Assembly (NCBI GenBank): GCA_024137785.1
Contig: JAHRHZ010000098.1
Span: 24,480,309 to 24,544,308, forward strand
Length of the DNA stretch: 64,000 bases
Reading direction: 5' to 3'
DNA from: Ginglymostoma cirratum
Lineage: Eukaryota
Shown: positions 9,501-55,400 of the stretch, piece by piece
Position numbering within the stretch: position 1 is the first letter of the stretch
How the letters are laid out: every line of letters begins with the position of its first letter
Translations under genes and position numbers: made by a program
Notes under the pieces: generated by a model
Database searches by the model: none
Told to the model about the DNA's origin: nothing
What the model saw: the letters and a program-made list of their open reading frames with translations, nothing else

Positions 9501-12500
9501 GAACAAGGGGGCTTAGCCTCAAAATAAAAGTGCAGCAGATTTAGGACCGAGTTGAGGAAGAAGTTCTTCACTCAAAAGGGTTGTGAATCTGTGGAATTTC
9601 CTGCCCAGTGAAGCACTTGAGGCTACCTCATCAAATGTTTTTAAGGCAAAGATAGATTTTAGAACAGTAAAGGAATTAGGGTCATGTCGAGTGGGCAGGT
9701 TAGTTGAGTTGAGTCTACAAAAATATTAGGCATGATCTTATTGGCTGTTAGAGCAGGCTCAAGGGGACACGTGGCCTACTGCTGCTCCTACTCCTATTTC
9801 TTATGTTTTTATTATGTTCTTAAGTTCACGGATGAAGGGTTACGCAATTGCAACAGAAAGCGCAGTGAGTACTTCACGTGGTGGATGATGGCTGAGGGAG
9901 GGTGAGCACAGAGCATTTATTAAACATTGCACAGTATCAATATGGATCCTACCTGTGATACATGCTATTTGTATCTTCATAGGTTTTGTTGATGGGATCC
10001 TCATACCCAATCTCTCTGGCACGCTTTCGTTCTTGGGCCATATATGCACCTCTCACCAATTTTGCCCCAAAGTACCAGTTTTCACGGCGGGACAGTTCTA
10101 CATCCATAGACACATTATCATAAGCATCCTGGAGGGGTTGAAAGGAAATGGGGAAAAAAAAAATCCATCAGAATCTTAGGGGGAGGCCTTGGACAGCAAT
10201 ACTATAATACAACATGTTAAATTCTCCATAAAAGACGACAATCAAAGCAGAGTATAGACATGAGCCTTACAGATGCTGGCTCATTCTACCCATCAGCTAC
10301 CTTGCCCATGGGCTACCAAAACTCCTGTGATTGGGATTTGTAAAAGGATCAAGAGGGCAAGGATTTCACATAACCGGTTAAGAGAAAAAGGTGTGACCAT
10401 ATTCTGACTTCCACCTGACAGCCCTTTCTGGCTCAGCTCTCCTGGAGAGTTTAGTCTGCAGCACACTTAACCCAGTGCTAAAAGGCTGTAGCTTCCTGTT
10501 CAATGGTCTGAGTACAGTATATAATCTAAGCTGGCACTTCTGTGTAGTATTGTCAGTATTTAACTGGAACATTAAAGTAAGGCCCAGGCTGTTTTTTCAG
10601 CTGGATGTAAACGATCCAACAGCATTAATTCTGAGAGTTGCAGAGTTGGCCCTGGCATCCAGGAAGATATTTCTTGCCATTTGTGGGATCTGTCTGGGTG
10701 AGAGATCAGCTGTTACATATCCCACAAAATGACAGTGACGGGACTTCAGGAACGTTTCACCGGCTGCAAATGCACTTTGGGGCGTCCTGTGGTCACCAAA
10801 GACACCATTTAAATAAGAGTTCTTCTCCTCTCGAGGATACAAGTGGCTGAGATACGGTTCCACGTACAATGGCAGTCCTTAGTGACTTTGTTAGAGCTTC
10901 AGTGTGATCATCCTTGTACCAAGAGAGTTAGGACCTGAAGTGTGATTGCTCGGGAGCTGGCCATCACAAAACATGGGCTTTTCCTCTGCATCCTGCAGTT
11001 TTCAATCTGTGCACATGACCATGAGAGCAGCAGACAAAGACGGATAATGGTTTTCCCCATCCCATGGAAAACAGAGTGCAGCCTTACCTTTAGGTAACAC
11101 TGGTAGGTATTGAAGATGGAGGGCTTCTCAGTGTTAAATTTCCTCTGCATCTCCAGGGTCAGCCTGCTGATAGCTGGTTGGAAATAGGTCTGCTCGGCAT
11201 CAACCATGAGGCGGACACCCCTCTTCAAGGCTTCCTACCATGGAATGTCAAGAAGTTTAGGACTAAAACAGAGGTTACAACATCTGCCTGCTTCTCTCAG
11301 TACAATAAAAGAAAATCCCACTGTGGTCACAGAACCAAGTCACGCTTTTGGCTGCTTCATCCTAAAATTGGCAATTAAATTCATAGAAAACAGAGGCAAC
11401 CGGCTTAAGGCCAATGGAAGTTCATTTTTACTTCTTGTGTGAATTAACACAAGTGTGGCTGGGAATCAAGACATTGTAATTCAAATGAGCTGGCAGTTCC
11501 ACTTTCAATCATTGAGAGTCCAATGGAACTCCAATTCCCTTTGAACATCTCCTACCTTTGCTAGAATATCCATTCTCTGCAGCATCCTTTTCATCTGGAG
11601 CTCCTCCTCCCCCGTGAACTGGAGGAGGAGTGGTTCAATCTCACCGGTCTGCAACGAAACCACAAGTAGCCATTATTCCAACAGTCAGAGCCGTTGCTCG
11701 ACATGGATGGAAAAGCTCATACATTCAAAACGCACCTGCTGAAATGGTACGTCATGAAAATAGATCATAACCGCATATTGCTTACACACAAATTAAACTT
11801 AAGTGCAACATGTATTATTTCTTTGAATCAGTCACTTGAGATGAAAGGTGTGAGATATAATACATATAGGATTTCAAACTTTTTTTTCCCCTTTATTCAT
11901 TCACAGGATGAGGGCATCGCTGGCTAAGCAGCATTTATTGCCCATCCCTAATTGCCCAGAAGGTAGTTAAGAGTCAACCACATTGCTGTGAGACTGGAGT
12001 CACATGTAGGCCAGACCAGGTAAGGATGGCAGTTTCCTTCCCTAAAGGACATTAGTGAACCAGGTGGGTTTTTCCCCGACAATCGTCAATGAATTCATGG
12101 TCATCATTAGACTCTTAATTCCAGATATTTATTGAATTCAAATTCCACCATCAGCCATGGTGGGATTCAAACCTGGGTCCCTAGAATGTTGTCTGGGTCT
12201 CTGGATTAACAGTCCAGCGATAATACCACTAGACCATCGCCTCCCCCTGGTGGTTTATTGATTACTTTTGCGCAGGTTTTTAAAATAAAGTCAGCTGTCC
12301 TTCAGATCTGGAGCAGTGACCTCATTTGGTATGTATCAGAGAGTAGCTAACTGTAAAACACTTGGAAGAGGAGAAGATTATTGATACTGTACGGTTTATG
12401 ATAAGTGGAGTAAATATTGAAGGGCATTAGCTTGCCTATGGTTTAGAATAATCAAGATTCATCTCAGCTTAAAGAATCCAGAGATTGAACGTTTTGGAGG

Positions 12501-24500: not shown

Positions 24501-27500
24501 AATTAATTAGAATAGTAGTTCCCAACAAGTGCCATGAGCCGCTATGTAGATTAAACTCATTGCACAACATGATGCAGTTAGTGGTGTCCATCCCTTGCAC
24601 CACATCCAAGCTGCAGGAAGGTTGCTTGAATCAAAAGGTTTTACAGGCAAATCAATTAAAAACTCAAATTTGGAGTAAGCACAAGAGTAAAATTGGCAAT
24701 TATCCCTGGGCTGCTTCAGGAAGGGTCCTACCTGTCACCAACAGGATACAAGAACGTCGACGTATCTAGCAATATTCCTTATACAAATCCTGCACACATA
24801 CATTAGCCTCAAATGAGTGTACAAGAATACGTGTATTGAGAGAAGGGCAAAAATCAAGAGTGCGTCGGGCTGGTGATTGAGTGTTCGTGAGAGCAAGCAT
24901 GTGTGTGTGCTNNNNNNNNNNNNNNNNNNNNNNNNNNNNNNNNNNNNNNNNNNNNNNNNNNNNNNNNNNNNNNNNNNNNNNNNNNNNNNNNNNNNNNNNN
25001 NNNNNNNNNNNNNNNNNNNNNNNNNNNNNNNNNNNNNNNNNNNNNNNNNNNNNNNNNNNNNNNNNNNTCAGGGAAGAAGGAGAAATCAGATACCATATAT
25101 TTTTGTAAAAAAAACAGGAACTCTAGCCCAAGCTAGAGAATCCAATTCAATCATTTTAGTGTATAATTCTTTTTGTGCTCACCATCTGCCTCAGAGGCAA
25201 GTTGAATTCAAAATCTGAGATAACAAGGTGTAGAGCTGGATGAACACAGCAGGCCAAGCAGCATCAGAGAGCAGGAAGGCTGACGTTTCAGGCCTAGACC
25301 CTTCTTCAGAAACTCTACTATCTCTGAATTCAAAATTTATTTGGTTTTGATGCAGAAAGATAAAGCAAAGGAGCACTTTCCAAAACAATCAGCAATCACA
25401 AGTGCCCTATGGTCATACACACAGCCACTGAAGACAAATGGAAATTTTCTACTTGGAGCCAAGCCACAGATTGTGCAACAGTCACATATTTGGCACCACT
25501 GAATAATTTCTCCTCTTCAGCATCACCTCCCCTCCGCATAAGCATACGCGTCTCCATCCAGCTAACCAACGAGAACAGTCCCACCCCCAACATACTTGTA
25601 ATATCACTTAAGGTCACGCAACTGAGTTAGGACCTTTGCACATCTCGATTAAGAATTATTTTTAACGTAAACAAAACAGGATTGCCCTCTCCACCTCCCC
25701 TCAGCTCTTAATATTTCACAGACAGTGTTGATATGTTTCACTGAAAGACATTTCATTGCTTGAGCTGTTTCAGTACGTGATATTGCACTCTCACAGAATC
25801 ACAAAAATCGAGCAGCCCCACCAGGAGCTGAAACACAGTGTCTATAACAGGCAGGGAATCTGAATCAGAATGGCTCCCTTTTCTGTCCTGTTGGTGGGCA
25901 GGATTCCCCAAACAGTGGGCAGGAGACAGGCACCTGCTTCATGGAAGCAGATGACTAATTTGCATCATTAAGGACCTAATTACAATCTAATTATCTAATT
26001 ACATTAGATCTTGCTAATGGCACATCAGCTGCAACTTCATGGAGGCAGCCTTCCTCCTAAGATAGGTGAAGGCAAATTTCCCATTGTCCCAGTGATTCCC
26101 AGACAGGAGCTTGCCAAACAATCGACAGGGTTTTAACTGCGATGGACCTCTCCAACAGGTGCCTCCCATTGTGGGGTAGATAGCGGCGCAGTGGCAAAGT
26201 CCCAACACTAGCAATCTACAGCCTCAGCCTAATGCTGAGGACGTGGCTTCAAATCTCAGTTGGACAGATAGTAAAATTTGAACTCAACATGTAAACTTGA
26301 GTTGGAAAGCTGACCACATCACTCTGGTGTCATCCAAACTCGTTCACTGACTTTGAGGGGAGGAAGTCTGCTGTCCTTAGCTGGTGTCTCCAGAACCACA
26401 GCAACAGACTGACCCTGAGAATGGTTTAACTACCCACTTAGTGGTGTCAAACTATTAAATAAAAACCCAGAAGAAAAAAAAAAGGGTGAAACAGCCAACA
26501 TTAACCTCAGCACCAGAAATGACAAAAGCACATCACGTCTGTTCAATACTGAAAGTCCTGCCTCCCAACATCTGGTGGCTTGTGACAAACTTGGAAGAGC
26601 TGTCCCATAGCCTCATTACACAATAGCCTAACAGTCACATATGCTGAGGCTAACTTCACTTCTTAGCACCACACCATCATCCTGAGATATCATCCACCAG
26701 AAGTGGCAGCAAGAATGTGCCCCTGGGAGCACTCAATATTGATGCTGGACCCCATTATATCTCATGGCATCAGGTCAAAAAAAATGTACATGGACCCCTG
26801 CTACTGATTACCAGCTTCTGTTGTAGTATTGGATCTACAGACTGGGTGAGGGAACATTGACACGTTTTATTGAACATATCTACTGACAAGGTATGGAAGA
26901 GCAAACATCTTCTGGAACACTGCGGACTCTGGCTTCAGTTCCATGCGATCCAGCATCACTGTGGTACGGCTCGAGTTACACATATTCAGCAGCTAATCTC
27001 CGAGTAAAGGTTTTTAAACTTATTCAGTCCTGGGATGGGGGCATCACTGGCTGGGTGAGAATTTAATGCCAGTCCTTAGCTGCTCTTGAGAAAAAAGGTA
27101 TAATTTACTCTAATCCACACTGGCTACCAGTCACAATGAAACAAATTTTATGGATTATTCATCTTTGACTTTGCTTTCTCTGAAAGCAATTAAAAATAAG
27201 CTTTGATATGCTAAAATGACCAAAGTCACCTGGTTTGATTAGTTAAACTCAGGAATTTAGAAAGGAATCTCTAAATAACTTGGTTGAAATTGTCTGCCAC
27301 ACCTAGAACAGACTGTCCATGGGCAATTATCCAAACTTGCTACACAAAGAATGGGATTAAACTTCTACGTTGGGTGACCTGGTTAGGTCAGTAGGTATAA
27401 CATGGCAATCTTAAACTCAGGGTCATGGGTGTAAGCCCCACAATGCACACAGACTGTTTGCCAGCTCCATGATTCAGTGGTTAGAGCACTGGTCTGGTAA

Positions 27501-30500
27501 ACCACGAGCAGTGACCTCAATTCTCACTGGAGCCTGCAAAAATGTTCATACATCTGGTGCATCCAGCATCCAAAAGGAGCACTTTAAATGTTTTAGGCAG
27601 CCAGTTTGGGGCGGTGAGGGCAGGTTGGAAGATCTCCTCATGGGTCTGCTCCTGGGCCTGGCCAGGCTGGCAGTAAACAGGTCCAGGCAGCAGGCCGTGG
27701 AGGTTGGGGGGAGGGGGAGGCAGCGGGGGTTCATTTCTGCTGCCTGCTTGTCTTCTGCAGTTACGTTTGAACTCAGATGTCCTTTAAGAGGGAGCACATA
27801 TTGTGCACCAATGCTCACGATGCCTTTAGGGAGAGGTGGACACTGTGGAGTGCTTTACTTCCCCTTCCAATTCTATTCCGATTTAATCTCTACCCTCACC
27901 CTTCACTGTTGCCCCCCCTCCCCGCAAATGTCAGCATTGCCCTAATTGGGCTTTGCATGTGGTCAGGGAACCAGTAACTGGGTGTTTTCCTGGAGGTGCA
28001 AATATTGAATAAAGTCTTTTACACATTAAAAAAAAAATTAAACCTCCACCTACTAATATTCAAGGAAAACTAGGGAAACTCTGGTAAAGGACCGTTCAAC
28101 TCTATTGCAAATGAATTTCCCTCATTGCAGGCCAACTGTCAGTATTCATATATCAAAACCTCAAGATCAACACTGGAGTTTTTAATTCCTTCAGCTTAGA
28201 TGCATGATTTTTGTTTTAAATTTGCTCCTGCCTGCACCCTATACCTTGTTCTGTTCATTTGCATTCCAGAGCATCTGCATGTGTGCACTTTGCAGAATTC
28301 AGGATGGGTATTTAACTTTTTTTTAAAATAATAGAAAAGTTTATAGTTTAGGAGTGAATAACAACTAACTCGAAGAATTCTGTTATGCTCTTCATATTTA
28401 ATGCATATTCAAGTAAATACTAAATGAGGAAAAAAAGTGCTGTTTAAAATTTTAACTGTGTTAGCCCAACCTCAAGAGTGAGAGGATAGGAGTTTATTCA
28501 CCCCTTCAGAATTGGTTGCAACATGCCCTTCAGCAAATGACGCAGTACTCCCCCACGCCGAACACCACTAGGTAGAGAGCGCACCACATGTATTCTGGAT
28601 GGTGGGAGGACTTGAGACTTCAACCTCCACCACTGAGAGAGGCAGGGCAACTCCACTACTGACCAAGACCTAAAAGGCAGCCACTAAACAGTAGGTGGTG
28701 AGGGAGATGGGGAAAAAAAAAATCTACTTGACCTCGCACTCACTCAACGTGTCACAGATGACTTTTCCATGATCGGTAGAAGCGATCACCACACAGTCCT
28801 AGTGGAGACGAGGATTGAGGATACCCTCTATCATATTATGTTGCAATACCATTGTCTTAAACGAAATAAATTTGAACAGAGGAGAACAGAATAATGTACA
28901 GGCTATTCACAGTATCAGGCATACCTAAAAATGGAGGTGTCAACTTGGTGAAGCTAGAATGAAAGATGAATTGCATGCCCAGCAATATAAACAGCATGCA
29001 GCAGACCGGCGATCCCAGAATCAGTGAAGGTCTGCAGTCATGCCACATCTCAGCTGTAGTGCTGAATGGTGGCTTCGTCGATAGAGCCAAGATGGCGCCG
29101 AAGAATGGCGACACAGTTCTACCAACCATAGGCCAATAGTTACATGGGAACCACCATCTGCAAGTACTCCACACGCCATCCTGTCTTGGAGCTTCATTGC
29201 CATTCCTTCATTGTCACTGGGTCAAAATCTTGAAGTTCTTTTTCTGGGAGCCCTGTGGGCGTGCCTGTTGACCAAAGTCTGGAATGGCTCACCACCACCT
29301 TCTCATGGCAAACAGAAATGGAAAAGAAATGCTGGCATAGTCTCTGATACACACATCAAGAGAAACAATTTTAAATCTCAATTCCCAAGATCATTTAACC
29401 TATCTGACCCCTGTCCATTGTCAGTGTTAATAAACCTCAACAACTCGGGATATTTTAACACCAAGCTGATCAGAGATGTTATGACACAGCTCTGGAGCAC
29501 CTGGGACTTGAACCCAGGCCTTCTGCCCCAGAGATAGGTACACTACCAGTGTGCCACAAAAGCCCTTAATGCTCCAGAACTTAACTAAGATGTCTGGCTG
29601 ACAAGCAGTGGATTGGGATCATAATTAAACCACTGAGCCAATCTTGGTTCAAGTCCCGCTCTTCAATTCAATGTTGGAGACACATAGGTTGGGCAAAACT
29701 CCAGCCAGTTTATATTTAATCAGCTGAAAAAAGTGCTGGTTACAAGTGGGTTCATTCCATTGCCAACATGGTCCTTCAGCTGTGACAAGGGAAGAAAGCC
29801 CTGAGACTTTGAACTAGAAACAGTGCTTACACGTCTACTGATTGAGGCCAGGCCACTTCGGACTCGAAGCTGTCTCAAAAATATTGACAAGACTTGGGTG
29901 TTAAAATGGAAACAGTTCTTCAGCTTCTCCCACGGGAGAAAATATTCCCTCTGCTAAGTCCATTCCAAACAAATGTCAGTTATAAAAAAAAAACTTGCAC
30001 TTTACACAGTCCTTCTCACAACCTCTGGACATCCCAAAACAACTCACAGCCAAAAAAAGCTTCTGAAATTTGTCACTGTTGCAAAACAATCTGTAAGTTG
30101 ATTTATCCATATTCAAGAATCGTTTGACAGTCAGGTTTGCTTGGATAAAGCAATATCCAGTAAATAGCTGTAATTGAAGTCACTGTAACAAAACAGAACT
30201 AGCTGACTGCCTTGTGCACAAGTGATTGTGAACGAGTCTAAGGTTACAGAAACTTACTGCATTGTAGTTCTTGTTTAGTAATACATTTCAACTATTTAAA
30301 TTATTCAGAAATTCATTGTGAACCAGACAGACAGTCTGTGGTTCATAGGAACAGGAATAGGCCATTCAGCCCCTTGAGCCTGTTCTGCTCTGCAACAAAA
30401 CCATGGCTGATCTATGGGTTAATTCCATTTCCCTGCTTTCGACCCAAATCCTTTAACACCTTTGCTAAGTAAAAAACAAGTATCTATCTCAGATTTAAAA

Positions 30501-33500: not shown

Positions 33501-36500
33501 GTTGGTTCTCACTTAAGTAACACAGAGTTTAAACTTCTCATCCTTGTTTCTAAATCTTTCAATGGCCTTGCTCCTCTCTAGCCCCGTAATCTACTCCAAC
33601 TCCACAACTCAAAGTATCTGCACTCCTATAACTTTTGGCTTCAAGCATCTCAAGTGTTAATAGTTCCACCATTGGAGACTATGCTTAAAGCAACCGACTC
33701 CCTCACTAAAACTCTTTGCTTGTGTTTCCTTCTTCAAGATGCTTCTTAAAGCCCAGTTCTTTGATCAAGCTTCCAGGGACCTGCACTAATATCTCATTGA
33801 GATTTGGTATCAATTTTTACTTTGCAAAAGTCCCGCAAAGCACCTTGGGAGTGTTTTATTATGCTGAAGGCATTATATAAATGCAAGTTGTTGATCTCGT
33901 TGTTTTTCTTGTTCTGAAGAGCACTTTGAGACACTTTGTGCTGCAGACAGATGCTCAGCACTGATCCTGAGGGTCAATGGAGAATAAAACTTAATGTCAA
34001 TGCTGGCAGGGCAGTGGATGGAAGACACCTGGATCAGGTAAATCAGAAATGGTCAGTTTTTTTGATTCAACACTTTCCTGCAACTTCATCCATCTGTCAC
34101 AACTAGAACCAATAGAATCTGTGAATAACAATGCAAGAGGCAGCTGCAGTTACAGACCAAGGAGTTAACAGACCATCAAGAGAGACGTTCTGACACTTCT
34201 TTTCAATAAAATTATGCTTAGCAGCTCCAACAGTGAATTCACAAACATCGATAATATAGGTTTCAGGATGCTTCAGGCTGATCAAACCACCAGATGCAAA
34301 AGGCAGAATGTTTACAAGAAAAAGATAAGTTATGATTGACCCCAGCTGCAGAAGAGGAATGAAATAAGACACCTCTCAAGCTACCCAGAACATAAAAAAT
34401 TAATTCACTCATAGTAAAGGTAGTTGAGTTGGATGAAAACAAACAAAACATTGCTGCACCAACTGAGCTCCTTGATGTACAGAGCGAATTAAAGCAGGGA
34501 TAAAAGGTACTGCAGATGCTGGAGAATCCGAGATAACAAGCATGGGGCTGGATGAACACAGCAGGTCAAGCAGCATCATAGGAGCAGGAAAACTTGACAT
34601 TTCGGGCCTAAACCCTTCATCAGAAATGGGGGAGGGGAAGAGGGTTCTGAAATAAATAGGGAGAGAGGGGGAGGTGGATAGAGGATGGATAGAGGAGAGG
34701 ATAGGTGGAGAGGAGGCAGATAAGTCGAAGAGGCGGGGATGGAGCCAGTAAAGGTGAATGTAGGTAGGGGGGTAGGGAGGAGATAGGTCAGTCCAGGGAG
34801 GACGGACAGGTCANNNNNNNNNNNNNNNNNNNNNNNNNNNNNNNNNNNNNNNNNNNNNNNNNNNNNNNNNNNNNNNNNNNNNNNNNNNNNNNNNNNNNNN
34901 NNNNNNNNNNNNNGTGAGAGGAAAAACAGGTTAGGGAGGTGGAGATGAGCTGGGCTGGTTTTGGGATGCGGTTGGGGGAGGGGAGATTTTGAAGCTTGTG
35001 AAATCCACATTGATGCCATTGGGCTGCAGGGTTCCCAGGCTGAATATGATTTGCTGTTCCTGCAGCCTTCGGGTGGCATCACTGTGGCATTGCAGGAGGC
35101 CAAGGATGGACATGTCATCTGAGGAATGGGAGGGGGAGTTGAAATGGTTCACCTGGACCATCTCCAACACTTCTCTCTCCTTCCTAGACCTCTCTGTCTC
35201 CATCTCGGGCAACCACCTAGAGACAGATGTCCATTTCAAGCCCACTGACTCCCACAGCTACCTGGAATACACCTCCTCCCACCCACCCTCCTGCAAAAAT
35301 GCCATCCCCTATTCCCAATTCCTTCGCCTCCGCCGCATCTGCTCCCAGGATGAGACATTCCAGTCCCGCACATCTCAAATGTCCTCATTCTTCAAGGACC
35401 GCAACTTCCCCCCCACAGTGGTCGAGAACGCCCTCGACCATGTCTCCCGCATTTCCCGGAACACATCCCTCACGCCCCGTCCCCGCAACAATAACCAAAA
35501 AAGAATCCCCCTCGTCCTCACATACCACCCCACTAACCTCCGGATCCAACGCATCATCCTCCGACACTTCCGCCATCTGCAATCAGACCCCACCACCAAA
35601 GACATCTTTCCCTCCCCACCCTTATCTGCCTCCCGGAGGGACTACTCCCTCCGCGAATCCCTTGTCCGCTCCACACTCCCCTCCAGCCCCATCACACCCG
35701 GCACTTTTCCCTGCAACCGCAGGAAGTGCTACACCTGTCCCCACACCTCCTCCCTCACCCCAATCCCAGGCCCCAAGAAGACTTTCCACATCAGGCAGAT
35801 GTTCACCTGCACATCTGTCAATGTGGTATACTGCATCCGCTGTACCCGTTGTGGCTTCCTCTACATGAGGGAAACCAAGCGGAGGCTTGGGGACCACTTT
35901 GCAGGACACCTGTGCTCAGTTCGCAACAAACAACTGCACCTCCCAGTTGTGAACCATTTCAACTCCCCCTCCCATTCCTCAGACGACATGTCCATCCTGG
36001 GCCTCCTGCAATGCCACAGTGATGCCACCCGAAGGCTGCAGGAACAGCAAATCATATTCAGCCTGGGAACCCTGCAGCCCAATGGTATCAATGTGGATTT
36101 CACAAGCTTCAAAATCTCCCCTTCCCCAACCGCATCCCAAAACCAGCCCAGCTCATCTCCACCTCCCTAACCTGTTTTTCCTCTCACCTCAAGCCACACC
36201 CCCATCTCCTATCTTCTAACATCATCCAGCCCCATGCTTGTTATCTCGAATTTCCCCTGAAAGTCCATTCCCTCACTCCCCTCCACCCCAACAGTATCCA
36301 AAGCTATCTATCTGTTTAAGAGGGGGATGACCACAGGACTCATGTGCTTCCTCCCTGCGACTTTTACTTGGTCGGATGATCACCTGTTCCCTTTCTGCCT
36401 GTATGATCCTTACTTGTAGTGTGACCATCTCCCCAGATGTGCTGTCCCTGTCATTCTCAGCATTGCGGATGCTCTGTAATGAGTCAACCCACAGCTCCAG

Positions 36501-39500: not shown

Positions 39501-41323
39501 AACAGCTGGATTAGCAAATCACTGCACATTTCAAATTCCAAACAAACATTCACTAACACAATCAACACACCCAACCAAGAGGACGTACATCTCATGTCCT
39601 AGCAACATTAGCAAAATATGATTGATCTACAATACAAAGAAATTGATGAAGATGCATTCCACATTTTTCCTCAGTGAATCAGCAGGACTAATGCCAACAG
39701 GCACTCTTTTTGAGTTACTAGGGAGCTTTTGGCCCACATATGTATGTCAGACACCAGTGCTGCCCTCAGCTATGTACACCCCCACACCCCTAAAGCCAGA
39801 GTCACTGCCCATTTCCAAAGCATTCCCTCCAAACCATCCTTCTCCAACCTCATCACTCCAGTGTTATTGCCCACTTCCCCAACATCTCCCTCCCCCTAGC
39901 CAGTGTGGTCACATGCCAATTTATGCCTTCCTGCCAGCATCATTGTCTACAGGCCTCTCTCATCAATCAATGCTGTTACTTGCAGACCATGCCCCAAGAG
40001 GTAGGGCACTAATCAAAACCTTCTAATTCCACCGCCAGCCATTGGCTGTGAAACTGTAGCTTGGCTACAAGTTACTGTTGAGGTCATGTTGGTCGATGGA
40101 AACAGTAAGGACTGCATATACTGGAAGCCAGAGTCAACAGGTGTAAAGCTGAAAAACGTTGGCCGATGGGCCTGTTTCTTTTATTTTCTAATCAAACCAG
40201 TTCAACATGTTATCACACACCACTGGAGCAGGTGAGTTTTGAACCTGAAACCGCCTGGTGCAGATGCAGGCACACTATCACTGTGGCAAATGAGCCCAGG
40301 TACGTGTATGACAATATAATTCTGAATGCAGCAGAGAATAATTAACACAGAGACTGTTAGCAACAAATGACTCAGGAGGATGAATCTAAATTAATCTATC
40401 AGGATTTGTCCCGTTCTAGACTAATGTCATCAATTTTTATTCCCAATTTACATATCTTAAGCGTTATGAGGTTTCAACTTTTCGGAAGTGAGATCGACCA
40501 ACTGTCAAGTTTTTTCATAATTTTGAAACTTCGGATTTGGTCAGCTCATTGTTTCACTCCCGGATCTAATACCAAGTTCATGATTTTTCCCCAGCCCCAA
40601 CTTGACCGGATAATATAAACTCCTGACACTTGGAACTCGCTGGAGGAAAACAAAACACGAGGAAGGAAGAAGATTCGGTGTTTGAGAGGGAGAAAAGCTG
40701 AATTTCTCAGGATGTTGGAGACCACGTTTTATGTCATGTAGGTGTCCCTGAGATTGCACCATTCGGAAGGATCTGCGCCATCCGAAGAAGGGGCTGCTTC
40801 CAGGAAACCTGGAACATTTCGTAAAACTGAAAGTAAATCAGGCAAATGGGAGGGGGGAGAACGAGTGACAACGAATGTGCTGATATCGAGAGCAGTTTTC
40901 TTTCAATTTGTGTTCTGGACTGTAAATATCGTACTGCAGAGTTTCTTGCCTTCTAGATATTTACTCGCTGAACCTTACATTTATACTTTGAAGCCCCAGT
41001 CATTACAGATCCCTCTCGCCCCTCACCTCCTTGTGCCGGTCCACTATCACACTGTACGAGCAAAGCCGGAACACCAGCAGGCTCCGCACCAGCTCCGCGC
41101 TGCTCTTGCTCCGATACGCTTCACGGTAGTTGCCGAAATCCGGGATGACAGCGGCAGTGGAGCCGGGGGCAGCGGGCGGTTGCGAGCGGACGCTCCCCTT
41201 GTGGGTCAGGCAGGGCCGGCTGCGGTCCCGAGGAGGCTCCTTCTGCTTCGGGGGAGCGGCGGCGGCGGAGGTGGAGGAAAACCTGAGGAAGGGGAGGCGA
41301 TGCAGGAGGAGACGGCTGGCCAT
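3399..41323 (-). CDS. PRODH: Proline dehydrogenase 1 (proline oxidase), mitochondrial; whole 14-exon CDS span, 1827 nt, 608 aa
   Basis: join(complement 41027-41323, 39250-39458, 22049-22083, 20446-20595, 20086-20150, 19677-19793, 17716-17795, 15539-15620, 11556-11648, 11088-11234, 9953-10128, 6094-6192, 4387-4475, 3399-3586). All junctions GT-AG, frame open throughout. Motifs [48 protein letters not shown]. Confidence 0.97.
4387..4475 (-). CDS. PRODH: PRODH coding exon 13 ([30 protein letters not shown])
   Basis: ctcgcag acceptor, GTATGT donor, 89 nt. Confidence 0.97.
6094..6192 (-). CDS. PRODH: PRODH coding exon 12 ([33 protein letters not shown])
   Basis: tttcag acceptor, GTAATC donor, 99 nt. 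Confidence 0.96.
6325..8180. mobile_element. Cluster of CR1 LINE fragments (mostly minus strand, short inverted piece at 6325-6432)
   Basis: [23 protein letters not shown] and [12 protein letters not shown]1 ORF2 motifs. Confidence 0.85.
9215..9815 (+). mobile_element. CR1 LINE 3' end
   Basis: [20 protein letters not shown] motif; typical 3' hairpin/TATGTT tail. Confidence 0.85.
9953..10128 (-). CDS. PRODH: PRODH coding exon 11 ([34 protein letters not shown]...YEDPIN...MYHR)
   Basis: ctccag acceptor, GTAGG donor, 176 nt. Confidence 0.97.
11088..11234 (-). CDS. PRODH: PRODH coding exon 10 ([25 protein letters not shown]...NTYQCYLK)
   Basis: ggtag acceptor, GTAAGG donor, 147 nt. Confidence 0.97.
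11556..11648 (-). CDS. PRODH: PRODH coding exon 9 ([31 protein letters not shown])
   Basis: ttgcag acceptor, GTAGG donor, 93 nt. Confidence 0.96.
11890..12247 (-). mobile_element. tRNA-derived SINE (full length); other copies ~18270-18625 (+), ~26170-26430 (+), ~44592-45077 (-)
   Basis: A/B-box head (TGGTCTAGTGG...GGTTTGAATCC), shared body and AATAAA tail. Confidence 0.8.
15539..15620 (-). CDS. PRODH: PRODH coding exon 8 ([27 protein letters not shown])
   Basis: tttctttcag acceptor, GTATAG donor, 82 nt. Confidence 0.95.
15990..16620 (+). mobile_element. Old CR1 LINE 3' fragment (others at ~21240-21430, 30345-30700, 42225-42610)
   Basis: Decayed [11 protein letters not shown] motif and CR1-type 3' end. 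Confidence 0.6.
17716..17795 (-). CDS. PRODH: PRODH coding exon 7 ([27 protein letters not shown])
   Basis: cctacag acceptor, GTAAGC donor, 80 nt. Confidence 0.95.
18389..18537 (+). mobile_element. Second-family Penelope-like 3'-end derivative with decayed hammerhead (18394-18423), inserted in a tRNA-SINE
   Basis: CTGAGGA-G-GGGTC-ACCA-GACCC-AAAACATT; perfect 11-bp TSD TGGCTGAATCT (18378-18388, 18538-18548); relatives at ~18790-18930 and 41637-41920. Confidence 0.7.
19080..19366 (+). mobile_element. HE1-like V-SINE; other copies ~23785-23931 (+), ~32550-32712 (-)
   Basis: tRNA head GGTTAGCACTGCTGCCTCACAG..GGTTCAATCC, V-domain TGTGTGGAG..CCCACAGTCCAAAGA, CR1-like GATTCTATGA tail. Confidence 0.8.
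19677..19793 (-). CDS. PRODH: PRODH coding exon 6 ([39 protein letters not shown])
   Basis: ttctag acceptor, GTCAGT donor, 117 nt. Confidence 0.96.
20086..20150 (-). CDS. PRODH: PRODH coding exon 5 ([21 protein letters not shown])
   Basis: ttatag acceptor, GTAGG donor, 65 nt; conserved AIKLTALG motif. Confidence 0.96.
20446..20595 (-). CDS. PRODH: PRODH coding exon 4 (..[37 protein letters not shown])
   Basis: ccgcag acceptor, GTACG donor, 150 nt. Confidence 0.97.
22049..22083 (-). CDS. PRODH: PRODH coding exon 3 ([12 protein letters not shown]), 35-nt mini-exon
   Basis: Long polypyrimidine tract + tttag acceptor, AG|GTAAGC donor; 35 nt restores the frame between exons 2 and 4. Confidence 0.9.
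24912..25067. other. Assembly gap (156 N) next to a (TG)n run; second gap 34814-34913 (100 N)
   Basis: Runs of N. Confidence 0.99.
25215..25324 (-). mobile_element. Miniature Penelope derivative with intact hammerhead core (25282-25309) and 10-bp inverted tail
   Basis: 12-bp TSD TGAATTCAAAAT at 25203-25214 and 25325-25336; CTGAAGA-A-GGGTCTAGGCCT-GAAACGTC. Confidence 0.85.
27377..27449 (+). pseudogene. tRNA-Lys(CTT)-derived pseudogene
   Basis: 73-nt ungapped match (about 53/73 by hand) to the canonical vertebrate tRNA-Lys-CTT as I recall it; CTT at 27410-27412; stems and B box disrupted. Confidence 0.85.
27463..27535 (+). pseudogene. tRNA-Thr-derived pseudogene (TGT/CGT family; anticodon now GGT)
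   Basis: 73-nt ungapped match to GGCTCCATAGCTCAGTGGTTAGAGCACTGGTCTTGTAAACCAG...CTCGCTGGGGCCT; anticodon at 27496-27498. Confidence 0.85.
27590..28037 (+). mobile_element. 3' end of a Tx1-like (L1 group) LINE with AATAAA and poly(A)
   Basis: Translations [28 protein letters not shown] and REH...DAFRERW resemble the Tx1 ORF2 C-terminus; AATAAA 28008-28013, A-tract 28028-28037. Confidence 0.7.
31360..31580 (-). mobile_element. 3' end of a third Penelope-like family (Poseidon-type) with hammerhead motif 31402-31435
   Basis: Translates as ..[14 protein letters not shown].. (Poseidon-like C-terminus); CTGACAA-C-GTTACC-TAGCAG-GGTGAC-GAAACGTC; related fragment at ~47040-47125 (+) retains CTGATGA. 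Confidence 0.7.
31581..32055 (-). mobile_element. CR1 (HER1-like) LINE 3' fragment; related pieces at ~3785-4050 and ~13611-14045
   Basis: [20 protein letters not shown]...[16 protein letters not shown]. Confidence 0.85.
34497..36248. mobile_element. Two-armed inverted Penelope-like (Neptune) insertion in PRODH intron 2 (minus arm 34497-35152, plus arm 35147-36248)
   Basis: Plus arm encodes RT C-terminus/thumb ([13 protein letters not shown]), Cys linker CNRRKCYTC and GIY-YIG-like [22 protein letters not shown]; GTTCAC microhomology at the junction; 100-N gap inside. Confidence 0.92.
36255..36960 (-). mobile_element. CR1 5' region/ORF1 relic
   Basis: Decayed ORF1 zinc-finger-like start around 36540-36595 plus 5' UTR-like sequence. 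Confidence 0.45.
38810..39145 (+). mobile_element. Rex1/Babar-like LINE 3' end; inverted relative at ~8185-8570
   Basis: KDPSYP..LPSGR...[14 protein letters not shown] motif and (AAATC)n tail. Confidence 0.7.
39250..39458 (-). CDS. PRODH: PRODH coding exon 2 ([10 protein letters not shown]...TFYGQFVAG...[10 protein letters not shown]...EME)
   Basis: ttcttgcag acceptor, GTAAGT donor, 209 nt. Confidence 0.97.
41027..41323 (-). CDS. PRODH: PRODH coding exon 1 (Arg/Ser-rich mitochondrial presequence; ...[27 protein letters not shown]...HKE)
   Basis: ATG at 41323 in CCGATGG context; donor GAG|GTGAGG; GC/CpG-rich; 297 nt. Confidence 0.9.
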
Positions 41324-41460
41324 CGGGCTGAGGAAGAGGATGCTGCAGACACTGAGGACGGGGGAGGGAAGTGAGATATTAGCCCCACACTGACACACCT
41401 CCCTCTCGCCAGATCCGCCTGTTTCCGGGTGCAGCGAAACTAACACTGTATCAATTTCCT

Positions 41461-41524
41461 GGCCAATCAGCTGCCAGGGCGCCAAGCTTCCATTCACAAA
41501 AAAAAGCTTCAGCCCCACCCCCCC
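41461..41524. promoter_or_regulatory. Putative PRODH proximal promoter: NF-Y CCAAT box and CACCC/GC-box
   Basis: GGCCAATCAG at 41461-41470 and CCCCACCCCCCC at ~41513-41524, 140-200 bp upstream of the ATG beside a CpG-rich exon. Confidence 0.5.
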
Positions 41525-41636
41525 AGGCTGCTCTAATCCTCTCCCTCTGTTGGGAGCTCTGCCTCATGTCTCTTTCCTCCTCTCTCTGCATCCAGGGAGA
41601 TTGAGTGCTAGTGGGCGTAAAAGACCCCAGAGCTTG

Positions 41637-47823: not shown

Positions 47824-50561
47824 TGAAATAACTCAACAGAGGTTCGTATCCTGTCACCAAGTCACCCTTAATTTACATGTGCTCAGTACTTTACTCTGGT
47901 CCGGCTTCCTCAGAGCCAGCTCACTGAGTGAGTAGAACCTCTAACACTCCTGTTTATATCTGTCAGCCAGGGCTCCCTGATTGGGGCTGTTATTCTGGCC
48001 CAATCAGGGAACTCACATTTTTGATGACGTTCACCTGGCTGACCTCGTTACAATCACTACATACCTCCCCCTCTAAGTCCAGGAATGTAGGCTTATTCTA
48101 TTTCTCATAGCCCCTCCTGAGGCGTTTTCACAAATTCAGTTCCTCTGACTCAGCCTCAGACACTGGTGGCACATATCAGACCACAGACCACCCCTTGTGC
48201 CCAGAGCGTCTCGGAAGAAATTCATTCTTTTCTTCAGGCAGTAAAGGCATCAGAGCTGCGACATCAGCTGTGTCCATCTCAGACTGTGAGGTTCCTTCAA
48301 CACTAAATGAAGAGGGAGAACCCACGTATTCCGACAGTCTTTCCAGATTTTCTGAGGGGCCGGGTATGTTTCGCTCCATTTGCGAGGTTTCAGCTTTCAT
48401 GTGGTCCACATGTTTCTTCAGGACTGCCTCACGTATCAGAATTTTGTACATCACAGGACCTGACTTCAGACTGACTGTGCCTCTTACCCATGTGGGCCAT
48501 TTCCATGGTTTTGGCACCAAACTTCATTTCCTGAAGTCAGCTGTCTCTCTCATTCCTGATGCTGTTTCACACTCCCTCCCCAGGTCTGGGTAGAACAGAT
48601 TTAACCTGGTGTGGAGCCTTCTCCCCATTAGTAACTCCTCTGGAGCTGTCCCTGTATTTGCATGGGGGTTGGTCCTATGAGCGAATTGGAGCTGAATGGT
48701 TTGTTGTTGAATGAAGCTGTAGGCTGTATCTTTAAGCCTACCTTCAAAGTTTGGACTGCTGTTTCTGCCGGACCATTTGACAATGGATGGTATGGAGCTC
48801 TCCTTGTATGCTGAATGCCATTCGACTTTTGGAAGTATTCAAACTCCTTGCTGGTAAATGATAGCCTGTTGTCTGTGACCAACACTTCCAGGAGCCCATG
48901 CAAAAGATGCTTGTAATTTTTCCATCATTGTCCCTGTGTTTGACGAGTAAACTCTTTGCACGTCCAACCACTTTGAGTGGGCATCTACAATAACTAAGAA
49001 CATTGAGCTCGTGAAAGGACCTTCGGAGTCGACTTGTAACTGGTTTTCCAGGACAGGATCTTTTTGTGTCCACGGTCTGATATTATCAATGATGACCGGA
49101 AGGATATCCAGAAAATTCAAATCCAGAATGAACTCTTCCAATGGCGGCACCGCTGGTGGTGTATATACCAGCAGGAGGTGGTTCAAGGCATCCACATTTG
49201 CTACTTGGTCTCTCGGACAGCATTCCAACTTGTAATTGTGTGCACTTAGAATGAAAGCCCACAGCTGGATTTGACCTGAAGCCATAGGCAGCATGGCCTT
49301 GTCCTCTTTGAGTAGTCTTATGGAGGATTTGTGGTCTGTTACAAATTTATGTCTGCAAAGGTATTGATGGAACTTTCGCTCACCAAAGACGACCACCAAA
49401 TAATCCTTCTCTCTCCGAGGGTAACAGCGCTCCACATCAGCCATACTCTGGAAAGCATACATTATTGGGTGTTCCTCTTCAATCGGCCATCTGTGAGACA
49501 ACACCACCCTGAAACCATACGGGGAGGCTTCACATGTCTGCAACAGATCTTGTTTGGAATCATAGGAGACATTACATTTCTGCGCCAGATCTCCCTGGGA
49601 TCATAGTATGCCAATGATGATAGCTGTTTCTTCATTTCCCTAAAAGCTATGTCTTGGCTACGAGACCATTTCTAAGGCTGACCCTTTTTCAATAGGAGAT
49701 GTAAGAATGGCACGATGAAGGTCGGATTACATATGTACTTTCTGTAATAATTCACGAATCCTAGGAAAGACCTAAGCTCTGGTACAGATGTGGAAGCAGG
49801 GACAACTTTGATCACTCTCACATCACGTTCAACAGGTGTAATTCAGTCTTGTTGACTCTGTACCCTAAGTAGGTCACATGGGATGCCTGGAACACACATT
49901 TTTCCCTTCTAAGGTGTACGCCCACATTGGAAAAATGTCTAAGGACTATGTCTAAGTTCTCTGAGCGCTTTTTATTGGTCTTCATTATTAGCACCTTATC
50001 TAGATAAATGGCAACCATTAAGAGTGAAACCAAAGTCACACGCTTCTGCCAGTCATTTTAACCTCATCAAAAATCCCTACACGGATTCCTCTGGTTCTAG
50101 AATTGCTAAGTGAAACCAATAGTGTCTCAGAATCACAGGAGGGCTTGGGGTTGTAATATCCCTTAACTAAATCTGTCAACACTTGAAAGGTTTTAATGTC
50201 TGATGCCTATTAATCAAAAAGTTGTGGGTCAACAAGCTATCAGGAGAATTACTTGTTGCTTTTCATATGCTGCCATGCTATTTGTGCAGGAAAAAATATT
50301 GTATTCTTTCCACAAACAGGGCCCAATCTTCAATGGCGGGATCGATCAAGTCAAGCTTCCCAAATAAAGGCATGATGCCAGAAATGTGTACCGCGACTTA
50401 AGAACAATCGTTGCGAGCAAATTTCTTCAGGAGCGTACTTGTCCTCTCTTGGCGCCACTGAAATAACTCCACAGAGGCTGGGATCCCGTCACCAAGTCAC
50501 CCTTTACTTACAAGTGTGTCGTACTTGACACTAATCCAGCTTCCTCACAGCCTGCTCTCAG
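47824..50561 (-). mobile_element. Degenerate Ty3/Gypsy LTR retrotransposon (Mag-like): 3' LTR 47824-48061, truncated 5' LTR 50459-50561
   Basis: TG..CA LTR, PPT AGAGGGGGAGGTA at 48062-48074, PBS-like TGGCGCCAAG; gag MPLFGKLD..EDW; RT YLD; RNase H CEASPYG; integrase VDAHSKW, TDN, APYHPLSNG. Confidence 0.9.
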
Positions 50562-51070: not shown

Positions 51071-52407
51071 ATCAAAATATCCATGAGAAAACTACTTTTC
51101 CATGTTGTGATCTGGACATTTGATTTATGAAATTTTGTTCACCCTGACTATGTTCTTTTTCCACTGTAACTGTGTTAAATGTCTTTTGTCTGTTTTAATT
51201 GTGATTGATTATGTGTGTTTCTGAGGGCTTTGAATAAGTTTTGATAGTTGCATCATAGTAAATTAGAAATCTCTTATTTTTTCTGCTCTTGTTAAAGTTA
51301 TGTGTGTTATAGTCAATAGTTATTTTATTGTTACTGACAAAACCTGGTCTAAATTGCTTTTATCCTGAGTCAGGCAGGCAAATTGGTTATTTTGGTGGTC
51401 TCATTGAGATTTTATACACTTATACATTTTGGGAAGGCGCGCGATCATGATTATCAGTGTACTCTTCCCAATTAAGTTACAACAAAATATACACAGTCGT
51501 ATAATTAGGTGATAATAATATTTCACACAATAGACATATTAGGAAGACTTAAAACCTAGGGTTTAAGAGGCGTGTACATATGAAATTGGACAAGGAACAT
51601 GATTAAGCCTCAAGAGCAGCAATGCATTCATTTTTGGGCACCACCACTTAAGGAAGGCTAGCAATACCCTAGGGTTTTTGCTGAAGAAATTTATTACTAT
51701 GTCACCTGAGCATTCTTTGAGAGCCTCCCCCTCAGCCACAACATGTAACACATGAAAGGACAAGCTCAACATGCATGGGATCAACACCACTTACAGAACC
51801 CTTCCCAATTTACACAATATCCTGATCTGTGAATACATTACCTTTCCTTCATCCCCACTGGGTTACAATGTTAAAACTCTCTACTTACGAGGATGATAAT
51901 TCCAGCATTTTAAGAAAACTACTTACTTAAAGACAATTGGGGATTAAGAATGAATACTGAACTTGCCAGTAATGCCTACATCCCAGGAATGAATTTAAAA
52001 AAGTGATGTCAATATTGAACTTATTACTCCAAGTGTTTGGCATTGTGCTTTAATAAAGAGTAAACTGGAGATTTGAATTTCATTTCAGTAGTCTCTCCAT
52101 AGAAGAAGCTATTGAACAAAAATGTCAAAACCAGCCTCCTGTCAAATAACTTTTGAGAGATTAATGTCTGTATTGGATGGGAGTGATATTTCCTTGGGGG
52201 TTAATGTCTGTAAAGGATATTGCTGGGAAAAAAATGGTTGATTTTTTTCTTTTTGCTATTTCAGTTAAGATCTTTATGAATTATTCCATATATAGATATC
52301 AACACTCCCTTATTGATTTTCAAAACTGGAAATCAATGTGTCAGCATGCTGATTGCACCAATCATGTGACTGCAGAGCTTAGAGGGAACACCGATATATT
52401 CGTTTCA

Positions 52408-55400
52408 GAGATAGTAGGAACTGCAGATGCTGGAGAATCTGAGAGAACAAGGTGTAGAGCTGGATGAACGCAGCAGGCCAAGCAGCATCAGAGGAACAGG
52501 AAGGCTGACGTTTCAGGCCCAGACTCTTCTTCAGAAATGGGGGAGGGGAAGGGGGTTCTGAAATAAATAGGGAGAGGGGGGGAGGCGGATAGAAGATGGA
52601 TTGAGAAGAGGATAGTTGGAGAGGAGACAGACAGGTCAAATAGGCAGTGATGGAGCCAGTAGAGGTGAGTGTAGGTGGGGAGTTAGGGATGAGACAGGTC
52701 AGTCCAGGGAAGATGGGCAGGTCAAGCGGGCGGGATGATGTTAGTAGGTAGGAGATGAGGGTGGGGCTTGAGGTGGGAGGAGGGTTAGGTAGGAGGAAGG
52801 ACAGGTTAGGGAGGCGGGGACAAGCTGGGCTGGTTTTGGGATGTGGTAGGGGGAGGGGAGATTTTGAAGCTTGTGAAGTCCACATTGATACCATTGGGCT
52901 GCAAGGTTTCCAAGCAGAATATGAGTTGCTGTTCCTGCAACCTTCGGGTGGCATCGTTGTGGCACTGCAGGAGGCCCAGGATGGACATATCTTCTGAGGA
53001 AAGGGAGGGGGAGTTGAAATGGTTCGCGACTGGGAGGTGCAGTTGTTTAGTGCGAACCGAGCATAGGTATTCTGCAAAGCGGTCCCCAAGCCTCTGCTTG
53101 GTTTCCCCGATGTAGAGGAGGCCACAATGGGAACAGCGGATGCAGTATATCACATTGGCAGATGAGCAGGTGAACATCTGCTTGATGTGGAAAGTCTTCT
53201 TGGGGCCAGGGATGGGGTGAGGGGGGAGGTGTAGGGGCAGGTGTAGCACTTCCTGCGGTTGCAGGGAAAAGTGCCAGGTGTGGTGGGGCTGGAGAGGAGT
53301 TTGGAGCTGACAAGGGAGTCACGGAGAGAGTGGTCCCTCCGGAAAGCAGATAAGGGTGGGGAGGGAAAAATGTCTTTGGTGGTGGGGTCAGATCGCAGTT
53401 GGCGGAAGTGTTGGAGGATGATGCATTGGATCCAGAGGTTGGTGGGGTGGTACGCGAGGACGAGGGGGATTCTGTTTTGGTTGTTACTGCGGATAGGGGG
53501 TGTGAGGGATGAGTTGTGGGAAATGCGGCAGACACGGTCGAGGGCGTTCTCGACCACTGAAGTGGAGAAGTTGCGGTCCTTGAAAAACGAGGACATCTGA
53601 GATGTACGGGAGTGGAATGGCTCATCCTGTGAGCAGATGCGGTGGAAGCGAAGAAATTGGGAATAGGGGATGTCATTTTTGCAGGAAGGTGGTTGGGTGG
53701 AGGTGTATTCTAGGTAGCTGTGGGAGTCAGTGGGCTTGAAATGGATATCGGTTTCTAGGTGGTTGCCAGAGATGGAGACAGAGAGGTCCAGGAAGGAGAG
53801 AGAGGTATTAGAGATGGCCCAGGTGAAGTGAAGGTTGGGGTGGAAGGTGTGGGTGAAGTGGATGAACTGTTTGAGCTCCTCGTGGGAGCACGAGACGGTA
53901 CCGATACAGTCATCAACATAATGGAGGAAGAAGTGGTGCTTAGGGCCAGTGTAGCTACGGAAGAGGGATTGTTCCACGTAACCTACAAAGAGGCAGGCAT
54001 AGCTTGGGCCCACGCGGGTACCTATGGCCACGCCCTTTGTCTGTAGGAAGTGGGAGCAATTGAAAGAGAAGTTGTTGAGGGTGAGGCCGAGTTCGGCTAA
54101 GCGGATGAGGGTGACAGTGGAGGGGGACTGGTCGGGCCTGCGGGACAGGAAGAAGTGGATGGCCTTTAGGCCATCTGCATGGGGAATGCAAGTGTATAGG
54201 GGCTGGACGTCCATGGTAAAGATGAGGTGTTGGGGACCGGGGAATTGGAAGTTCTGGAGGAGGTGGAGGGCATGGATGGTGTCATGGACGTAGGTAGGGA
54301 GTTCCTGCACCAAGGCGGAGAAAATGGAGTCGAGATAGGTGGAGATAAGTTCGGTGGGGCAGGAGCAGGCAGAGAGAATGGGTCGAACAGGGCAGTCAGG
54401 TTTGTGGATTTTGGGAAGGAGATAGAAGCGGGCGGTGCGGGGTTGGGGAACAATGAGGTTGGAGGTTGTGGGTGGGAGGTCACCTGAGGTGATGAGGTTG
54501 TGGATAGTTTGGGAGATGATGGTTTGGTGGTCGGGGGTGGAGTCATGATCAAGGGGGCAGTAGGAGGAGAGTTGGCGCCTCTGTGCGCCATACTGCAACT
54601 GCGCGTCCCTTGTCCGCGGGTTTTGTGGTGAGGTTGGGATTGGAGCGGAGGGAGTGGAGGGCTGCACATTCTGCAGGGGAGTGGTTGGAGTGGGTGAGAG
54701 GGGTGGAGAAGTTGAGGCGATTGATGTCTCAACGGCATTTGGAGATGAAGAGGTCGAGAGTGGGTAGGAGGCTATAGACCCTATACCCCTGCATTCCCCA
54801 TACAGATGGCCTAAAGGCCCTCCGCTTCTTCCTGCCCCGCAGGCCCGACCAGTCCCCCTCCACTGACACCCTCATCCGCTCAGCCGAACTCGGCCTCACC
54901 CTCAACAACGTCTCTTTCAATTCCTCCCACTTCCTACAGACAAAGGGGGTGGCCATGGGTACCCACATGGGCCCAAGCTATGCCTGCCTCATTGTAGGTT
55001 ATGTGGAACAATCCCTCTTCTGTAGCTACACTGGCCCTAACCCCACCTCTTCCTCCGTTACGTTGATGACTGTATGGGCGCTGCCTTGTGCTCCCACGAG
55101 GAGCTCGAACAGTTCATCCACTTCACCAACACCTTCCACCCCAACCTGAAGTTCACCTGGACCATCTCTAATACTTTTCTCTCCTTCCTGGACCTCTCTG
55201 TTTCCATCTCTGGCAACCACCTAGAAACCGATATCCATTTCAAGCCCACCGACTCCCACAGCTACCTAGAATACACCTCCTCCCACCCACCTTCCTGCAA
55301 AAATGCCATTCCCTATTCCCAATTCCTTCACCTCCACCGCATCTGCTCCCAGGATGAGGCATTCCAGTCCTGCACATCTCAGATGTCCTTGTTTTTCAAG

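Follow-up and report, generated by a model that had tools for sequence, protein, structure and literature searches.

Tandem tRNA-Lys and tRNA-Thr relics before a Tx1-clade LINE tail in Ginglymostoma cirratum, probably inserted as one unit

A stretch of 64,000 nucleotides (nt) from Ginglymostoma cirratum (assembly GCA_024137785.1, contig JAHRHZ010000098.1, positions 24,480,309 to 24,544,308, forward strand; hereafter the window) carries at 27371–28036 an old, decayed insertion of 666 nt, in which a tRNA-Lys relic is followed by a tRNA-Thr relic and by the tail of a long interspersed element (LINE) of the Tx1 clade. The locus raises the question whether these modules arrived together and, if so, how they were joined; the joining of a tRNA head to a LINE tail is an open step in the origin of short interspersed elements (SINEs). 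Judged from sequence and arrangement, the Lys head, Thr head and Tx1 tail are probably the product of one retroposition event. The copy is dead and without present function, since the B boxes of both tRNA relics are broken and the open reading frame is disrupted. Every module named in an earlier sequence-only reading was found in its place, and only the distance between Thr relic and tail, put there at about 50 nt, is corrected to 56 nt (27536–27591). All features lie on the plus strand (ORF2, open reading frame 2; UTR, untranslated region):

27356–27370 (+), left copy of the probable target-site duplication (15 bp), identical to 28037–28051 at 12 of 15 positions
27371–27376 (+), leader-like 5' segment of 6 nt between the direct repeat and the start of tRNA-Lys
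27377–27449 (+), decayed tRNA-Lys(CTT), named from the retrieved tRNA-Lys(CTT) gene L001
27450–27462 (+), spacer of 13 nt with TGTTT at 27455–27459, then 3 nt before the Thr relic
27463–27535 (+), decayed tRNA-Thr, Rfam RF00005 at 34.7 bits (gathering score 29)
27536–27594 (+), trailer-like segment without ORF2 homology by shuffle test, ending in TGTTTT (27589–27594)
27592–27886 (+), 5'-truncated Tx1-clade ORF2 C-terminus, about 90 codons, stop at 27884–27886 (phmmer, tblastn, profile)
27703–27722 (+), G-rich insertion of 20 nt in the ORF2 remnant
27887–28027 (+), presumed Tx1 3' UTR, about 140 nt, assigned by position alone between stop and A-tail
28028–28036 (+), poly(A) remnant of 9 A
28037–28051 (+), right copy of the probable target-site duplication

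The Lys relic is named by comparison with genes. Twenty-two loci were fetched with a short motif, and 21 of them contain a tRNA-Lys(CTT) call. The relic is identical to L001 at 53 of 73 positions without gaps (73%; next-best place in the window, 39/73), and at 34 of the 51 positions outside the fetching motif (binomial p about 1e-9). Among 33 distinct fetched tRNAs, 15 of type Lys(CTT) score 78–88.5 against it and the best other scores 51. The anticodon CTT is intact at 27410–27412. Six of the 20 differences are of CpG type. Folding gives no cloverleaf (z +1.18). ARAGORN calls no tRNA gene in the whole window, and Rfam misses the relic even on a 113-nt stretch, the relic being too decayed; its identity is therefore taken from the fetched genes. 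Phage tRNA matches (E 0.1–6, mixed isotypes) were discarded. The 22 loci are eukaryote-type tRNA clusters inside prokaryotic assemblies; two of them, L008 (317–536) and L014 (369–586), hold eukaryote-type DNA with Lys(CTT) then Thr(AGT). At 27225–27253, 120 nt upstream, a stretch resembles the Lys relic with a 19-nt deletion (score 30.6 against the relic, 18 against a functional tRNA). As a second copy of the Lys head it was set aside: 7 of 1219 background windows are as good, one overlapping the same stretch, and the likeness is probably chance.

The Thr relic is the one tRNA reported by Rfam in the window. Against the 33 fetched tRNAs its best partners are two Thr(AGT) genes (72 and 63), with Gln next at 61. 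The anticodon reads GGT (27496–27498). Reverse transcription of inosine-34 in tRNA-Thr(AGT) would read GGT; the base may reflect this or one ordinary substitution, and as a single base it lends weak support to an RNA copy. Thirteen look-alike units, taken from 7 of 25 protein matches, all read TGT, AGT or CGT at the codon in anticodon position, which is the Thr set without GGT. The seven database 'proteins' concerned (P0002, P0004, P0005, P0007, P0008, P0013, P0016) are translated tandem tRNA-Thr-like arrays, that is, spurious gene predictions. One further match (P0006) is a repetitive protein and is taken as chance.

The remaining 17 of the 25 phmmer hits match the frame from 27592 onward. 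The remnant holds one internal stop, the 20-nt insertion and a further frame break near 27840; homology to the ORF2 C-terminus covers 27592–27839 and is weaker onward to the stop. P0026 is the C-terminal half of an ORF2 and has the domains RVT_1 and zf-RVT; it aligns to 27601–27839 across the insertion, and its last residues match as far as the stop (5 of 300 shuffles as good); P0011 and P0019 carry RVT_1. Pfam finds nothing in the element's own frames (0/3). A word-based protein search with the junction-spanning frame gave 0 among 28 candidates and missed even known relatives of the tail. Named relatives come from turtles, a sturgeon and the shark Mustelus asterias, none of them named Tx1; an Atlas search with P0026 likewise gives RVT_1/zf-RVT clusters, none so named, and one with P0012 only leads under 0.9. 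The clade is reached through the sturgeon protein P0041, which matches L1 ORF2 at E 2e-69 and whose reverse transcriptase (RT) stretches are similar to P0026 (59%) and P0011 (40–53%). The endonuclease of P0041 scores 81 bits to PDB 2v0r against 59 to wild-type L1. That structure is the L1 endonuclease with a grafted hairpin of Xenopus Tx1L (PMC1950540). P0041 shares the 11-residue Tx1L hairpin, with 7 of 11 loop residues identical. The domains of P0011, P0019 and P0026 and the L1 match of P0041 agree with an L1-group ORF2 that combines an APE endonuclease with an RT. By this indirect route, which runs through RT similarity, the parent family of the tail would belong to the Tx1 clade and lie nearer Tx1L than mammalian L1; compared with Xenopus Tx1L, the element keeps just the 3' 435 nt of the LINE. 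Sharks are described as having Tx1-like repeats and no full L1 (PMC8455134).

Within the remnant, the insertion at 27703–27722 gives a 17/19 inverted match to the element's own 3' region at about 27910–27927 (4 of 1744 background windows as good); it is possibly a fold-back slip of the template, or low-complexity chance. The presumed UTR holds AATAAA at 28008–28013 and T4 runs (27985, 28017). No notable fold was found there (z -1.40), and the idea of a folded 3' recognition structure was dismissed.

The case for a single unit rests on arrangement. The tRNA relics and the Tx1 part are co-oriented, 56 nt apart and enclosed, all modules together, by the outer repeat, and the element lies outside any tandem array. 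They are also the only tRNA relics and, by a profile of the ORF2 C-terminus, the only significant Tx1 C-terminal fragment in the window. Decay is of similar order in all modules (Lys 20/73; Thr at least 10/75; ORF2 at least 8/111 and at least 16/96 nt), which fits a single old event. The 15-bp repeat with three mismatches, noted already in the sequence-only reading, is the best direct-repeat pair across the two ends, and in a scan of 26000–27600 with the right flank only A-runs scored higher than 27356–27370. It is a probable target-site duplication, only modestly above chance. A duplication of the Tx1 part alone, ending near 27600, was tried and rejected (score 2 against 7 for the outer repeat). 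The identities proposed earlier for both heads and tail are upheld by the fetched tRNA genes, Rfam and the ORF2 relatives, and insertion as one unit is probable.

The joints between modules bear on how they were joined. TGTTT starts 5 nt downstream of the Lys relic, where fetched Lys genes have their terminator: the first T4 lies 2–10 nt downstream in 23 of 26 such genes (28 fetched, 2 cut off), which are not independent, many coming from one contig. By chance, 8.3% of window positions have a terminator-like motif so placed. TVT3 is a partial, leaky terminator and T4 an efficient one, with long read-through trailers in human cells (PMC3141230). The spacer parses as Lys trailer, oligo(T) and Thr leader equally well as the spacer of a dicistronic transcript. 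Neither relic has a clean CCA after it (the Thr relic is followed by GCA, then A4), and a leader-like segment is present at 27371–27376, which may be that of a pre-tRNA. The 56 nt before the tail were compared with five upstream ORF2 segments, and 61 to 200 of 200 shuffles were as good (positive control, 0/200); deleted ORF2 is thereby rejected as their source, with an in-frame His-Phe at 27580–27585 leaving 12 nt of doubt on the boundary. T-rich motifs of the 5' part stand at 27455 (TGTTT), 27543 (TGTT), 27583 (TTT) and 27589 (TGTTTT), the last of which has three T in common with the first Tx1 codon; of all window positions, 5.8% are as near a T4 as this junction is. The 5' 224 nt can accordingly be parsed into two precursor-like units, the first with leader, Lys, short trailer and oligo(T), the second with a leader of 3 nt, Thr, a long trailer and oligo(T). 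The sequence-only reading had taken the T4 at 27591–27594 for a later mutation or a leaky terminator. A later mutation is not required: the run falls where Tx1 homology begins, which is where a captured RNA polymerase III (Pol III) transcript would have its 3' end.

In the favoured reading, which is given about an even chance, a Tx1-clade LINE produced a chimeric retrocopy of the U6/L1 type that is either a one-off or low in copy number. The arrangement is that of such a retrocopy: a sense small RNA fused to a 5'-truncated LINE with poly(A), the homology of the tail beginning mid-ORF. Tx1 ORF2 would have made a nick at the site and begun target-primed reverse transcription at the poly(A) of a Tx1 RNA, a start suggested by the A-tail, AATAAA and the 15-bp repeat. 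About 435 nt in, inside the ORF2 coding region, copying would have passed to the oligo(U) 3' end of a Pol III precursor RNA, either because the enzyme jumped templates or because the two RNAs had been ligated beforehand; the position of the junction is observed, and the mechanism is inferred. The captured RNA may have been a Lys-Thr pre-tRNA, made by read-through of two genes that a 13-nt spacer with a leaky TGTTT separates, or a pre-tRNA-Thr, after which a second jump would have led onto a complete pre-tRNA-Lys (leader, tRNA, 7-nt trailer, UUU). Two jumps are slightly favoured over read-through, because the spacer parses as trailer, oligo(T) and purine-started leader and because tandem tRNA genes 13 nt apart are unusual in vertebrates. 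The unit would then have integrated as one piece and decayed neutrally. Of the origin first proposed, a dicistronic pre-tRNA transcript read through into or switched onto a truncated Tx1, the template switch and the snapshot of SINE birth fit the locus, and the dicistronic Lys-Thr RNA becomes one of two readings.

The strongest rival, judged somewhat less probable than the chimeric retrocopy, makes the element one old member of a non-autonomous family with many copies, be it a heterodimeric tRNA SINE or a Tx1 derivative, SINEU-like or internally deleted, with tRNA heads. Its master would have arisen by the same joining step, been transcribed, and been amplified by Tx1 through the shared 3' end. 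The weights of the two readings are judgements, not computations. Against a family, the LINE-derived part has about 295 nt of coding sequence, which is long for a SINE tail, and the T-runs lie at module ends, where Pol III would stop on a master; of the T4 runs, those at 27591 and 27985 should terminate Pol III transcription (PMC3141230) unless they arose by later decay, with which their number is compatible. In its favour, SINEU families multiplied although they contain internal oligo(T), and U1/U2 heads are found on some crocodilian Tx1 families (PMC4494074). SINEs are delimited by SINEBase as non-tandem, below 1 kb and with at least 60% tRNA identity over at least 60 nt (PMC3531059); the unit is non-tandem, under 700 nt and full-length from head to tail, its heads reach that identity over that length, and its 3' end is common to the partner LINE through the ORF2 C-terminus to the stop. 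No second head or tail copy occurs in the window, which says little below about 10,000 copies, and none of the 25 protein matches to the Thr-Tx1 frame holds both tRNA and LINE parts (weak evidence). A narrower form, an undescribed family with two full-length pre-tRNA heads (Lys, Thr) and a Tx1-derived tail, from joined oligo(U)-ended precursors or a dicistronic unit, is rather unlikely. Several observations nevertheless tell against the one-off chimera. With a 64-kb window and an assumed 3.5-Gb genome, the chance of meeting a single copy is about 2e-5 and that of meeting a 1000-copy family about 0.02, so that detection in one window favours a family. Divergence is perhaps greater in the Lys relic than in the Thr relic (Fisher p 0.04, with the Thr count a lower bound) and perhaps greater than in the rest of the unit. 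The T-run coincidences were spotted post hoc, and three of the four junction T may be a Tx1 Phe codon. A trailer of 55 nt is long (trailers above 25 nt occur in just 1 of 26 fetched Lys genes), and TGTT 7 nt past Thr (27543) could be what mutation has left of the original terminator, as would suit a SINE master transcribed by read-through. Internal T4 runs number 2, against 2.2 in shuffles, and simulated T4-free masters at 15% divergence gain at least 2 by decay in 29% of cases; the T4 count was therefore dropped as evidence against a SINE, as it does not discriminate. Human tRNA/L1 chimeras, of which 21 are described, are mostly antisense tRNA halves (PMC13174262), whereas the tRNAs of the element are sense and full-length.

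The flanking repeat is a further point of this kind, as its score is equalled by 19 of 597 random left flanks (left copy allowed to end up to 20 nt before the tRNA; p about 0.03), and it leads to the reading of separate events, in which a tRNA pseudogene pair, retroposed or resident, and an unrelated truncated Tx1 landing 56 nt downstream share a repeat that is chance or belongs to one part. GCA and A4 after Thr could then be a decayed CCA and a short A-tail. This improbable reading has to accept the small chance that the only tRNA relics and the only Tx1 end of 64 kb came to adjoin, and the Tx1 part has no good inner repeat of its own. Dewa is a Tx1-type element that targets tandem tRNA arrays. 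A Dewa-like insertion downstream of a Lys-Thr pair, the tRNAs being brought by 5' transduction or DNA duplication, is more improbable still. Fixed targets are frequent in Tx1-clade elements (PMC4494074, PMC4640811), and in 2 of the 22 fetched loci a Thr(AGT) gene comes after Lys(CTT) in the same orientation. In both, L008 and L014, the genes lie 71–73 nt apart and each Lys gene has its own T4. A close Lys-Thr tandem, sought as a motif, has 0 matches in a prokaryotic genome collection, a poor test. The site is not an array, with no other tRNA in 64 kb, and the insertion into a tRNA array suggested by the sequence-only reading finds no support there.

The nearest known systems share single traits with the element. 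U6 chimeras with L1, L2 and RTE are described, with human pre-tRNA retropseudogenes cited (PMC4476161). In the U6/L1 type, as in the element, a sense full-length Pol III RNA lies 5' of a 5'-truncated LINE with poly(A) and, in the element probably, a flanking duplication, and template switch or RNA ligation is proposed for both; the element differs in its two RNA heads in series, their pre-tRNA-like form and its Tx1 partner. Tx1-Mar probably mobilised crocodilian SINEU, to which U1/U2 were added at the 5' end repeatedly and independently; 26 SINEU-2 copies have U1-like 5' extensions from multiple addition events, and SINEU-1 tails match no LINE in Repbase (PMC4494074). Tx1-clade machinery, 5' addition of small RNA, internal oligo(T) and poly(A) are common to SINEU and the element. 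SINEU differs in its U1/U2 heads, in tails without detected Tx1 homology where that of the element is plainly Tx1 ORF2, and in forming multi-copy families with a transposon target, the element being known here from one copy. Chondrichthyan SINEs HE1, SacSINE1 and the CmiSINEs combine a tRNA head with a LINE tail (PMC3747384, PMC5499810), L2 tails being described for holocephalan SINEs (PMC5499810). They have a single tRNA head, a V, Deu or CORE domain, and HER1, CR1-like elements or L2 as partners, not Tx1; the element is set apart from them, compared by description only, by its Tx1-type ORF2 tail. In PMC3747384, mentions of Tx1 fall outside the table of SINE-LINE pairs, and PMC5786205 mentions Tx1 0 times. 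No description of a tRNA-tRNA-Tx1 element was found in the literature searched, which excludes most subscription journals, and the element may already be catalogued. Precedents exist for its individual parts, in Tx1 with U1/U2 heads, in chimeras of tRNA and L1 and in Twin SINE, and their combination was not found described. Twin SINE reportedly consists of two tandem tRNA-related units, for which a dimeric tRNA precursor is said to have been proposed, and is said to be an established insect family with the same tRNA type twice and no LINE-derived tail. Tandem tRNA-related units are thus shared with the element, and same-type tRNAs and the lack of a LINE tail would set Twin SINE apart. It is cited by title, for Culex pipiens, in PMC3531059.

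The unit looks like the first step of SINE birth. To our knowledge, mature SINE families are usually without trace of leader, trailer or terminator; at the joints of the element, leader, trailer and oligo(T) seem preserved. Such preservation predicts that tRNA-headed Tx1 copies of the same genome join at pre-tRNA oligo(T) ends. Were the element multi-copy, it would add a SINE whose head is a heterodimer of tRNAs and whose tail derives from Tx1. The partnership with Tx1 would then be proven by sequence, a case not found described, and the junctions of the family would record how tRNA heads join LINE tails. A Lys-Thr pair 13 nt apart, if it exists, would be a candidate dicistronic tRNA unit in a vertebrate. 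If single-copy, the element would be a dead oddity by which a known class of chimeras gains a new donor and a new LINE clade.

At the 3' end, AATAAA directly precedes a TCTTTT run, followed by the A-tail (28008–28036). This order resembles the 3' end of polyadenylated Pol III SINEs, and may simply be the normal end of Tx1.

Pfam was run on 299 of the 631 open stretches of the window (at least 45 aa) and gave 4 matches, two of them to proline dehydrogenase, one to an RNase H and one to an RT. Exons of proline dehydrogenase (PF01619) lie on the minus strand at 9952–10167 and 10911–11234. The GC-rich frame at 41006–41563 (-) has no Pfam match and is presumably the first exon of that gene; in that case the element sits inside an intron of the gene, in antisense orientation. 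Long RT-bearing frames, partly intact and on both strands, occupy 34935–36170, 52379–56545 and 58289–60303, with an RVT_1 match at 53153–54871; they resemble Penelope-like elements and share an end of about 100 nt, repeated at 25212–25312 and elsewhere. A decayed pol fragment of a long terminal repeat (LTR) retrotransposon with RT_RNaseH domains is found at 48839–49600 (-).

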